4,519 nt of DNA. It comes from Naegleria gruberi (taxonomy: Eukaryota). Below the pieces are notes generated by a model. That model was not told the origin of the DNA. It searched no databases and was given only the letters and a program-made list of their open reading frames with translations. The stretch lies in NCBI GenBank assembly GCA_000004985.1, contig GG739180.1; one strand, given 5' to 3'. The position numbers and the translations under genes were made by a program. Below, piece after piece: positions 419 to 4,519 of the stretch. Every line of letters begins with the position of its first letter. The stretch's first letter is position 1.

Positions 419-558
419 TTTGTTTGTATATTTGAATTGTCTCGAGACCATCCTTGCCATCAATTAATTTAAAAGACTTTGAAACATCCATCACTACAAG
501 GAAATTACCAAGTTCCTTCATCGGATCACTTAATAAAATTAAGATCCCATTTTATTGA

Positions 559-1764
559 TGTGAGAAAATTGAACCAGATAACCTTAAACAAATTATTCAC
601 GCTAAAGCTATTAGCTTATTTACACACCTTTCTAAAATTAACTTAATTCCTCTGAAAAAGGCACAACAAATTGATATAGCCATTAGAGGAGCAATTAGAA
701 GAAAACTATATATGGACAGGAAAACACCAACCAGCTTATTCCACTTACCATTAGAAAAAGGTGGATTAGGACTACCATCTATTGTAGAATTTTCTGAAAG
801 AATGAACCTAAGAACCATGACCTTAATTGCTAACAGTAACAATTTACTCGTCAAGAAAGCTTTCAAACATGGTATCAAGCACTGTGAGGAAACGAAAGAC
901 AATATTTATTCGAAATGGCTACTAGTACTAAAAGAATACAACCTCACACTTAAGAAAAATGAAATGAAATTCAAGTTGAAAAAAATCAAAACAGGAAATA
1001 ATTTTGATATTCACACTGACGGATCAAGACTCGAATCAAAGACTGGAATGGGGATTAATATCTATGATTGCTCCAATATGAACACTCCAGTTAGATCTTT
1101 ATCCCTCCATATTAATGATCAATATTCAAATAATGTAGCTGAAATATGCTCTATTATTACAGCAGCTAAAGTTATCCCAAGAGACTCCAAGATTAAAATC
1201 CATACTGATAGTAATGTGGCAATTGAAGTTCTCAAAGAACGATATAAGGGAAACTTTCTACCACTAAAAAAAGCCTTCTTTAAAACCATTAAGGATAGAA
1301 AACTTGAATATGAATTCAAGAAAGTTGAAGCTCATAAGGATAAGGAAAATATCAAAGTTGATTTATTGGCAAAGAATGCAACTCTGAAACCTAAAATCTT
1401 TGATATCCGTAAACTACTCTTTAATCAATATATCCTCACAAAGAACGATATTATAATCTTTGACTATAAGAGGTTAACTACCTCACAACATTTAAGGCTA
1501 ATGCTTGACAAGATAGAGAGTCACCCCAATCACATACCTAACCTAGATTGGAACTCTATCAACGTCAGCTACCTTAAATCCCATTTGTCTCCTAAATCTG
1601 AATATTATATTTGGAGAAACTCTTCAAATGCCCACATCAATTTTGGTGAGGGTAAAAGTTTCTGTCATGATTGTAACACAGAATCTGACCTTAATCACTA
1701 TATTCATGAATGCCCTGNTCTGGATAGTGCCAGATACTTTTGCTTGTCAAAAATATCTGATATT
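559..1764 (+). CDS. Partial ORF2 (pol-like) of the non-LTR retrotransposon: post-RT region + RNase H + CCHC zinc knuckle; truncated at the 5' end by the insertion and at the 3' end by the N gap
   Basis: Same frame as ORF-track entry 712..2889, whose first Met at 712 is not the biological start. The frame is open from 559, and the upstream peptide CEKIEPDNLKQIIHAKAISLFTHLSKINLIPLKKAQQIDIAIRGAIRRKLY continues the ORF2-like sequence. Everything after 1764 in the track ORF is Xs from Ns and is not real. Confidence 0.7.
1000..1383 (+). other. RNase H (type 1) domain of the retroelement ORF2, catalytic residues intact
   Basis: Motifs read in order: IHTDGS (D at 1018-1020), NNVAEICSI (E at 1141-1143), IHTDSN (D at 1207-1209), EAHKDKEN (H at 1333-1335), KVDLLAKNA (D at 1360-1362). 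This matches the retroviral/LINE RNase H pattern (DGS ... AEL ... TDS ... H ... N..AD.LA). Confidence 0.8.
1663..1713 (+). other. C-terminal Cys/His zinc knuckle of non-LTR ORF2 (CX2CX7HX4C)
   Basis: CHDCNTESDLNHYIHEC: tgt 1663-1665, tgt 1672-1674, cac 1696-1698, tgc 1711-1713. The spacing C-2-C-7-H-4-C is typical of the cysteine-rich domain at the C-terminus of LINE ORF2 proteins. Confidence 0.7.
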
Positions 1765-2859
1765 NNNNNNNNNNNNNNNNNNNNNNNNNNNNNNNNNNNN
1801 NNNNNNNNNNNNNNNNNNNNNNNNNNNNNNNNNNNNNNNNNNNNNNNNNNNNNNNNNNNNNNNNNNNNNNNNNNNNNNNNNNNNNNNNNNNNNNNNNNNN
1901 NNNNNNNNNNNNNNNNNNNNNNNNNNNNNNNNNNNNNNNNNNNNNNNNNNNNNNNNNNNNNNNNNNNNNNNNNNNNNNNNNNNNNNNNNNNNNNNNNNNN
2001 NNNNNNNNNNNNNNNNNNNNNNNNNNNNNNNNNNNNNNNNNNNNNNNNNNNNNNNNNNNNNNNNNNNNNNNNNNNNNNNNNNNNNNNNNNNNNNNNNNNN
2101 NNNNNNNNNNNNNNNNNNNNNNNNNNNNNNNNNNNNNNNNNNNNNNNNNNNNNNNNNNNNNNNNNNNNNNNNNNNNNNNNNNNNNNNNNNNNNNNNNNNN
2201 NNNNNNNNNNNNNNNNNNNNNNNNNNNNNNNNNNNNNNNNNNNNNNNNNNNNNNNNNNNNNNNNNNNNNNNNNNNNNNNNNNNNNNNNNNNNNNNNNNNN
2301 NNNNNNNNNNNNNNNNNNNNNNNNNNNNNNNNNNNNNNNNNNNNNNNNNNNNNNNNNNNNNNNNNNNNNNNNNNNNNNNNNNNNNNNNNNNNNNNNNNNN
2401 NNNNNNNNNNNNNNNNNNNNNNNNNNNNNNNNNNNNNNNNNNNNNNNNNNNNNNNNNNNNNNNNNNNNNNNNNNNNNNNNNNNNNNNNNNNNNNNNNNNN
2501 NNNNNNNNNNNNNNNNNNNNNNNNNNNNNNNNNNNNNNNNNNNNNNNNNNNNNNNNNNNNNNNNNNNNNNNNNNNNNNNNNNNNNNNNNNNNNNNNNNNN
2601 NNNNNNNNNNNNNNNNNNNNNNNNNNNNNNNNNNNNNNNNNNNNNNNNNNNNNNNNNNNNNNNNNNNNNNNNNNNNNNNNNNNNNNNNNNNNNNNNNNNN
2701 NNNNNNNNNNNNNNNNNNNNNNNNNNNNNNNNNNNNNNNNNNNNNNNNNNNNNNNNNNNNNNNNNNNNNNNNNNNNNNNNNNNNNNNNNNNNNNNNNNNN
2801 NNNNNNNNNNNNNNNNNNNNNNNNNNNNNNNNNNNNNNNNNNNNNNNNNNNNNNNNNNN
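1765..2859. other. Assembly gap (1095 consecutive N), plus a single ambiguous base at 1718 just before it
   Basis: The sequence shows an uninterrupted run of n. It sits inside and downstream of a repetitive retroelement, which is where short-read assemblies typically break. The true length is unknown. Confidence 0.99.
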
Positions 2860-3500: not shown

Positions 3501-3521
3501 CATCGCTTGCAAAAAAAAATG
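3501..3521 (+). promoter_or_regulatory. A-tract 5' leader / translation initiation context of the downstream gene
   Basis: Nine consecutive A (3511-3519) run into ATGTCT. A-rich leaders with A at -3 and TCT as the second codon are the preferred initiation context in budding yeasts. No convincing TATA box could be assigned. Confidence 0.3.
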
Positions 3522-4519
3522 TCTTTCGGAATGAACGCTTCACACCGCCGCAAATTGGGAGACGACAATGATGATGATCACACTTATTACGGCAGGGTTG
3601 AACAACAACAAATAACAACCCCACCAAAGAATAAGGCAGTCTCTGGATTTGAGTTCTCAGAGTTTAGACAGCAGAGATTGCAGAGCTTGGCTGGTTTGGA
3701 TGTTGAAACGTCTCCATCATCAAATGATGAATTTGCCAATAAGGCAAGAGAGAGAGTATCTTTTAGTATTCCGAGAATGGATTTTTCAATGATGGGAGGT
3801 GATAATCAATCTTCATCATTTGGTTCACCTCCACTTTCATCGGAGAGGACAGATTCTGTCAGATCAAATTTTGGTAAAGTATTTGATGAAGATATGTTGC
3901 AATTATTGAATCCAATTGCTTCTCGGGTTCATTCCTTTGAAAATAGAAGCAGTAGGAGGAGAAGTATTAGTAATAGTTCGAAAAACAGTCCTGAGGTTAA
4001 TTCAGGCATTGTAGATTGTCCAAACCTTGAACAGAACGAGTCTGGATTATCATCTTTCCTTTGGAAACAAAGCAAGGAATATTTGTATGTTTTGATACCG
4101 ATGGGAGGAGATAAGGGTTTCTATAAACAGGATGAAAATATTGAACTAGATGTTCAAATCAAATCAAAGAGAATTTACGCAGCCTTCAATGAGAAGGGTT
4201 CAGATATTCCACACGAAAAGCTTGTCGATTCAGAGTTGAGCATTGAGGTTCAAGTAGATGAATCAGGTTGGTGTATTAGAAATTCTCATTTACTTTTAGA
4301 GTTGAAAAAAAGAGATTCATCTGATGATGTTCAATTCCCTTTGCAATCGAGATTAAGAGTTAGAGAACTAGAGGAGGAAGCTGAAAATTCTTGTAAATAT
4401 GAAGTAATGTCATCAGATGCTCCACTCCACAAGGAAATTTATCAGAGTTGGTTCAGTTGTATTGAGGATGATATTGCCAATTATTACTCCAAGTTTGAAG
4501 CATTGAAGAAAGATATGGG
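3519..4519 (+). CDS. Partial host gene (5' part; continues beyond window end): hypothetical protein with Ser-rich N-terminal half and a candidate CS/p23-like domain
   Basis: ATG at 3519-3521 in the context AAAAAAAAATGTCT (yeast consensus). Hand translation gives 333 codons with no stop to the window end: MSFGMNASHRRKLGDDNDDDHTYYGRVEQQQITTPPKNKAVSGFEFSEFRQQRLQSLAGLDVETSPSSNDEFANKARERVSFSIPRMDFSMMGGDNQSSSFGSPPLSSERTDSVRSNFGKVFDEDMLQLLNPIASRVHSFENRSSRRRSISNSSKNSPEVNSGIVDCPNLEQNESGLSSFLWKQSKEYLYVLIPMGGDKGFYKQDENIELDVQIKSKRIYAAFNEKGSDIPHEKLVDSELSIEVQVDESGWCIRNSHLLLELKKRDSSDDVQFPLQSRLRVRELEEEAENSCKYEVMSSDAPLHKEIYQSWFSCIEDDIANYYSKFEALKKDM. It is missing from the ORF track because no stop lies in the window. 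An alternative in-frame ATG at 3465 would add MFLSRSPYSPSIHRLQKK; the frame is closed by TAA at 3417-3419. The segment FLWKQSKEYLYVLIPM ... LDVQIKSKRIYAAF ... LSIEVQVDESGWCIRNSHLLLELKK follows the W-Q-(x)n-V-I ... L-x-L-K alternating beta-strand pattern of CS/p23 domains. Confidence 0.7.
   Translation, partial: MSFGMNASHRRKLGDDNDDDHTYYGRVEQQQITTPPKNKAVSGFEFSEFRQQRLQSLAGLDVETSPSSNDEFANKARERVSFSIPRMDFSMMGGDNQSSSFGSPPLSSERTDSVRSNFGKVFDEDMLQLLNPIASRVHSFENRSSRRRSISNSSKNSPEVNSGIVDCPNLEQNESGLSSFLWKQSKEYLYVLIPMGGDKGFYKQDENIELDVQIKSKRIYAAFNEKGSDIPHEKLVDSELSIEVQVDESGWCIRNSHLLLELKKRDSSDDVQFPLQSRLRVRELEEEAENSCKYEVMSSDAPLHKEIYQSWFSCIEDDIANYYSKFEALKKDM

Follow-up and report, generated by a model that had tools for sequence, protein, structure and literature searches.

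A probable dead-on-arrival, 5′-truncated APE-type LINE insertion in Naegleria gruberi that resembles the I group or Proto1

Few clades of non-LTR retrotransposons carry an RNase H domain. Those listed as doing so are the I group, Proto1, Dualen/RandI and plant L1 (Kojima and Jurka, PMC4640811), with Proto1 being a Repbase clade (PMC4640811, PMC4455052). In plant L1 elements the domain is archaeal-like, and an R replaces its catalytic H (PMC4640811). In the I group (I, LOA, R1, Tad1, Ingi, Nimb and Outcast), ORF2 encodes an AP-endonuclease (APE), a reverse transcriptase (RT), an H-type RNase H with the catalytic set D-E-D-H-D and, often, a CCHC knuckle, in this order; gag-like CCHC knuckles in ORF1 are typical of many members, if not universal. 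L1-clade elements, including Zorro and human L1, are likewise APE-type and have two ORFs; their copies are often 5′-truncated and flanked by target-site duplications, and they carry a GG motif in the thumb region and a C-terminal CCHC knuckle. R2 elements (R2Bm, R2Tg) have a DGGLG/AIP thumb motif and the knuckle context 'C..C.......H....CP....aR', together with N-terminal zinc-finger/Myb domains and a C-terminal restriction-like endonuclease, and possess neither APE nor RNase H. Naegleria genomes are very transposon-poor: LINEs make up ~0.25% of the N. lovaniensis genome (PMC6125883), and total repeats ~0.28% of that of N. gruberi (bioRxiv 10.64898/2026.06.24.734286). Methylation (5mC) of young transposable elements has been reported in N. 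gruberi (PMC12344493). A literature search for Naegleria LINEs or the Proto1 clade yielded no specific description.

Here, we analyzed a 4,519-nucleotide stretch of the N. gruberi genome, hereafter referred to as the window. Its segment from ~565 to 1764, continuing into an assembly gap, is very probably a dead-on-arrival, 5′-truncated insertion of an APE-type LINE whose family is not L1/Zorro and resembles the I group or Proto1. The family has the ORF2 order and the H-type RNase H of the I group. It shares with L1 all of the features named above, and with R2 the thumb motif and the knuckle context; it differs from R2 in having APE and RNase H and from L1 in the points set out below.

The open frame and its domains

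As the earlier note had described, the plus-strand frame is free of stops from the flanking TGA to the gap (Table 1). The remaining five frames of the same interval contain 16–63 stops each, and the probability of encountering 402 codons without a stop at the local base composition (39% A, 28% T) is ~2e-14. A single N lies inside the frame at 1718, 47 bases ahead of the gap, and in-frame ATGs occur at 712 and 802.

Table 1. Coordinates of the features in the window, with the evidence for each
Feature	Position	Strand	Evidence
Probable ORF2 C-terminal part (thumb, RNase H, CCHC) of a 5′-truncated heterolobosean APE-type LINE copy	565..1764	+	blastn, tblastn, P0002
Open frame, 402 codons, from flanking TGA (556–558) to gap	559..1764	+	
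GGLGLP, post-RT 'thumb' motif, generic to non-LTR elements including R2	760..777	+	
RNase H type-1 domain, catalytic set D-E-D-H-D complete	1006..1380	+	PF00075, residue mapping, fold match
Zinc knuckle CX2CX7HX4C (CHDCNTESDLNHYIHEC)	1663..1713	+	conserved in every family member
Assembly gap, 1095 N	1765..2859	.	
5′ flank, apparently intergenic DNA outside the element, with TGA 556–558	419..564	.	alignments no better than shuffles

The GGLGLP motif, complete RNase H and zinc knuckle that had been read from the translated frame were all confirmed. Pfam matched RNase_H (PF00075) to frame residues 150–274 with E=1e-11 (45.7 bits vs a cutoff of 25.8). All five catalytic residues are present, as D154, E195, D217, H259 and D268. 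In a profile alignment, the last four correspond to E48, D70, H124 and D134 of an E. coli RNase HI sequence that we take to be the reference, while D154 was assigned by eye from the motif HTDGS. AlphaFold modeled the RNase H domain alone with confidence (mean pLDDT 54.8 across the 402-aa frame), and the predicted domain matched E. coli RNase HI with a TM score of 0.74 and a Foldseek E value of 7e-8; thus, both the fold and the catalytic set are those of a type 1 RNase H. Since only this domain was confident, the model was left out of clade inference. The knuckle consists of the residues C-HD-C-NTESDLN-H-YIHE-C.

The 5′ boundary of the element was located by comparison with related sequences. 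Using blastn against 3779–4972 of the contig L001, which carries a sibling copy, we found 90.4% identity over 1200 bp, with similarity starting at window position 565. Using tblastn with P0011, the closest intact relative, we found that 565–1764 is covered with E=7e-112 and that the frame is colinear with P0011 residues 748–1143. By local alignment, the 146 bases at 419–564 scored no better than shuffled controls against the element sequence in L001 and in L002, a contig of N. lovaniensis. An extension of the element upstream to 436, the start that the earlier note had suggested, was therefore rejected. Given that similarity starts at 565 and that the 146 bases upstream are unlike the other copies, nucleotide comparison places the truncation point at ~560–565 and the TGA at 556–558 in the flank. 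The alignment to P0011 further indicates that the window copy is without ORF1, endonuclease and RT, and that what it keeps is about the final quarter of the element. The same colinearity upholds the original description of the locus as a 5′-truncated LINE copy with an intact ORF2 C-terminal frame.

The gap would hide the last ~70 ORF2 codons and ~50–65 nt of 3′ UTR, as estimated from P0001/P0002 and L001, and beyond these the 3′ junction and any target-site duplication there. With the 3′ end unassembled, a search for a target-site duplication in the window found no repeat joining the 5′ junction to post-gap sequence. The gap is probably a repeat-induced assembly break. A small N. gruberi scaffold of 7.8 kb carries NAEGRDRAFT_82331 (P0002), which is 99% identical to the window frame; this scaffold might be the missing piece of the gap, or a second copy.

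Two other ORFs lie in the window. On the minus strand, an ORF with its ATG at 418 runs off the window across 1–418 and encodes a very acidic N-terminus (MSIKSSCDIYDYQSSEEEEDNQE...). Pfam found no match in this ORF, which is arranged head-to-head with the element, ~145 bp from the insertion junction. The other ORF, on the plus strand, has at least 333 codons; it occupies 3519–4519 and also runs off the window. It gave a borderline match to the CS domain (PF04969, E=7e-4, 20.9 bits vs a cutoff of 21.3) and is presumably a host gene.

Full-length relatives, other copies and the mode of insertion

The architecture of the complete element is seen in its relatives. P0011 is a 1213-aa ORF2 protein in which Pfam recognized Exo_endo_phos_2 (PF14529, 31.3 bits, above the cutoff), RVT_1 (PF00078, 2.4e-24) and RNase_H (PF00075, 2.1e-13). 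The contig that encodes it (L005, Logan SRR26782605, 5279 bp) consists entirely of one element, in which ORF1 (at least 523 codons) and ORF2 (1213 codons) are both open, which suggests that this element is currently active in the SRR26782605 sample. L004, a locus of N. fowleri, carries a nearly full-length relative in which ORF1 precedes an ORF2 with one frameshift; this ORF2 encodes, in order, APE, RT (FADD), thumb (GGMGIP), RNase H and CCHC. The full element is ~5.3 kb in length and comprises ORF1 and then an ORF2 that runs from AP-endonuclease through RT, thumb (GGLG) and RNase H to CCHC, with a short conserved tail behind it. Through P0011 and L004, the window frame is colinear with ORF2 proteins that combine an AP-endonuclease with a non-LTR RT. 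In the ORF1s of L004 and L005, Pfam recognized no domain, and no gag-like CCHC knuckle was found either.

These relatives bear directly on where the RNase H and the knuckle come from. RNase H domains occur in LTR retrotransposon and retroviral pol genes and in host RNase H1 genes as well, and Naegleria genomes carry Gypsy and DIRS elements (PMC6125883), so that an origin in one of these was considered. The full-length relatives, however, combine an N-terminal AP-endonuclease with an RT of the non-LTR type, for which R2 and L1 are the best matches among solved structures, and both protease and integrase are absent from them. Within ORF2, the RNase H domain sits in a colinear position, and both the 5′ truncation and the 17-bp target-site duplications described below are hallmarks of LINEs. 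The colinearity with APE-RT ORF2 proteins excludes both the LTR and the host RNase H origin, which we consider to have almost no chance of being correct, and the LINE reading, against which such an origin would have counted, stands.

Additional copies of the family are also 5′-truncated, each at a different point. The sibling copy at L001 3676–5238 lies in unrelated flanks and begins at ORF2 residue 713, compared to 748 for the window and 599 for L002. It is flanked by perfect 17-bp direct repeats (ATTTTTTAGTGCTAAAT) at 3659–3675 and 5239–5255, where none is expected by chance. Decay is evident in the L002 copy, where a stop codon is present and the frame is disrupted beyond it. Variable 5′ ends were thus found across the copies, and target-site duplications in L001; together, these are the signature of target-primed reverse transcription and characterize an APE-type LINE.

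In established LINE biology, the endonuclease would nick the target, the RT would copy the element RNA from its 3′ end by target-primed reverse transcription, and RNase H would strip the RNA from the RNA:cDNA hybrid. At the window site, synthesis or joining would have halted at about ORF2 codon 748. We infer that the truncation took place at insertion rather than by later deletion. A halt at this codon would leave the copy without promoter, ORF1, endonuclease and RT, so that it could neither move nor encode an active enzyme. Its frame would still be open owing to recent insertion, and not because the locus is a gene.

We also considered that the frame could be a host gene, a domesticated LINE-derived protein with RNase H and zinc knuckle kept open by selection. 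The 402 intact codons, the in-frame ATGs, the JGI gene model on the 99% identical copy (P0002, which starts MNLRTM) and the dN/dS of 0.10 against the L001 copy are all in line with such a gene. Against it, the family includes copies that are almost identical and copies that are truncated at various points. Moreover, the open frame has the truncation junction, and not a start codon, as its exact beginning, and the assembly is interrupted within the sequence, as a repeat would lead one to expect. Finally, because the copies compared lie at different loci, in unrelated flanks and one of them with target-site duplications, the low dN/dS (0.096, with dS 0.41) reflects purifying selection on active source elements, not on the window locus. 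We therefore regard domestication as very unlikely and the truncated LINE insertion as the preferred reading.

The 3′ ends of two elements were compared. In L001 the element ends in ...TAATAAAAG, with no long poly(A), and in L005 it ends in ...TAATAAA, with T8 closing the contig. Both 3′ UTRs contain the same 22-nt block (AAGAGAATCTGAATAGATTCGT; L001 5200–5221, L005 5233–5254), even though the two belong to subfamilies whose ORF2 proteins are only ~47% identical. The block holds a 6-bp hairpin (GAATCT/AGATTC) of stability that is not unusual (z ~0), and TAATAAA follows it near the element end. This block could be an RNA tag recognized by the RT of the family. Its window equivalent falls in the gap.

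In three N. gruberi gene models (P0005, P0006 and P0007), thumb, RNase H and CCHC follow directly on an N-terminal AP-endonuclease and the first part of the RT. The models skip the whole RT core and represent two subfamilies with 54% identity between them; P0005 and P0006 have the RT-skipping junction in common, and that of P0007 differs. These models are either spliced across masked RT sequence or real RT-deleted, non-autonomous derivatives. In L001, a short second fragment at 7163–7218 is 79% identical to window 856–922, which suggests that another degraded family copy lies ~2 kb downstream from the sibling copy. In N. lovaniensis, the decayed copy immediately adjoins the telomerase reverse transcriptase (TERT) gene (L002 3837–9656 on the minus strand and 9704–11224), an adjacency that is probably a coincidence.

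Clade placement

The earlier note had assigned the copy to the L1 clade and specifically to a Zorro-like lineage, based on motifs that it described as lying in canonical order, among them an L1 post-RT GGLGLP. The motifs themselves are present. However, GGLG aligns with DGGLAIPS of R2Bm and with DGGLGV/I of other solved R2 proteins and is therefore not L1-specific, and an RNase H between RT and knuckle is not canonical for L1. The knuckle, too, is common to R2.

We compared the family with solved proteins using a profile built from 11 heterolobosean ORF2 sequences. The best solved-structure matches to the RT and thumb were R2 proteins, with 175.7 bits (E=1.5e-50) and a match extending through the thumb, compared to 99.4 bits (1.7e-27) for human L1 ORF2p. 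Pairwise phmmer ranking of L1 and R2 was inconsistent among family members and was not used alone as evidence; P0014, for instance, scores human L1 slightly above R2. One protein, P0036 of Parnassius mnemosyne (2328 aa), surfaced solely through a thumb match to the family profile and contains six tandem repeats of the R2 C-terminal segment (thumb, knuckle and restriction-like endonuclease).

We then built a neighbor-joining (NJ) tree from 429 RT and thumb columns with 300 bootstraps and human L1 as the single labelled L1 reference. The tree is a rough one, with saturated distances, unlabelled I-like references and an alignment fitted to the heterolobosean profile. The heterolobosean sequences were monophyletic at 89%. 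They joined human L1 in 0/300 bootstraps, whereas P0151, an L1-like element that bears RNase H, joined human L1 at 97%. In this rough tree, the family grouped at 72% with two elements, unlabelled as references, that we recognized as I-like by their strong PF14529 matches (P0089 and P0129), and in the case of P0089 also by its TRAS1-type endonuclease. As evidence, the tree weighs more heavily against L1 than in favor of any named clade.

Domain searches point in the same direction. In the window frame and in P0011, Pfam found neither DUF1725 nor zf-RVT, the latter being a domain that the earlier note had suggested searching for, and in the ORF1s of L004 and L005 it found no L1-type domains (Transposase_22, or RRM with knuckle). 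The window RNase H retains the catalytic H259 and lies ahead of the knuckle, between it and the thumb, in contrast to the L1 pattern in which RNase H is absent or has R for H as in plant L1 (PMC4640811). The L1 pattern differs further from the family in its 3′ end, in that the one visible end, in L001, lacks a long poly(A), and in its host, which for this family is Naegleria, an amoeboflagellate, and not Candida. To our knowledge, Zorro elements have not been described as carrying RNase H. Membership in the L1 clade and in Zorro would fit the APE-type architecture, the two ORFs, the C-terminal CCHC knuckle, GGLG and the P0014 score, yet the profile scores, the tree, the Pfam results, the RNase H and the heterolobosean host of every traceable relative all speak against it, and we consider this assignment improbable.

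The family instead resembles the I group or, possibly, Repbase Proto1. The likeness to the I group lies in the order APE-RT-RNase H and the H-type RNase H. In addition, the PF14529 model that strongly matches P0089 and P0129 is the one that matches the family APE above threshold, and in arthropod I-like proteins the family-profile match is colinear from RNase H to knuckle. There are also differences from the I group. The ORF1s of L004 and L005 have neither gag-like CCHC knuckles nor a recognizable domain, the family is very divergent and restricted to heteroloboseans, and its APE, itself very divergent, has no significant TRAS1 or R1 match, while P0089 matches TRAS1 at 9e-16. Indeed, single-sequence comparison of the family APE domain with solved L1, TRAS1 and R1 endonucleases gave nothing significant. 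Proto1 is a candidate as one of the few clades listed as bearing RNase H. A word-indexed homology search with the RT domain for clade relatives returned three matches, none of them named.

A vestigial restriction-like endonuclease after the knuckle, as in Dualen, was also considered and dropped. About 85 residues follow the knuckle in family members, and no PD-(D/E)XK motif was seen in them by eye; the R2 match of the family profile ends before this post-knuckle region.

Host range, age and significance

The genome had been taken to be yeast-like, a view that the closest proteins contradict. The best database match is the N. gruberi predicted protein NAEGRDRAFT_82331, with 99% identity over 80% of the frame, followed by a protein of 92% identity from the assembly of a sequencing run and by proteins of N. 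lovaniensis and further ones of N. gruberi. When 1.8 billion representatives were searched exhaustively with the profile, 25 proteins fell below 1e-30, and the organisms behind the traceable matches were N. fowleri, with dozens of gene models, and Willaertia magna. On these matches, the family appears to be restricted to Heterolobosea (Naegleria species and Willaertia). No tRNA genes were found in the window, L001, L002 or L004, and no Rfam matches in the window, and targeting of tRNA genes as in the TRE elements of Dictyostelium was consequently rejected.

The proposal that the insertion is young, or the family young or recently active, has held up. The 99% identical second N. gruberi copy, the intact frame of 402 codons and the assembly break inside the element support a young insertion, and the low dN/dS is consistent with recent activity of the family.

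The window copy is an ordinary kind of element, and nothing about it is mechanistically new. Its value lies partly in annotation, given that NAEGRDRAFT_82331 and related N. gruberi 'predicted proteins' are LINE fragments rather than host genes. In a transposon-poor genome, the contig with intact ORF1 and ORF2, the near-identical copies and the low dN/dS are signs of recent activity. It is also possible, though we hold this only tentatively, that the heterolobosean elements of Naegleria and Willaertia form a separate deep clade of APE-type LINEs, maybe Proto1 or an unnamed one, which would be characterized by RNase H and CCHC, an unclassifiable ORF1 and an RT and thumb profile nearer to R2 than to L1. 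If true, the near-basal position of such a clade among LINEs with RNase H would make it easier to date the acquisition of this domain by APE LINEs.
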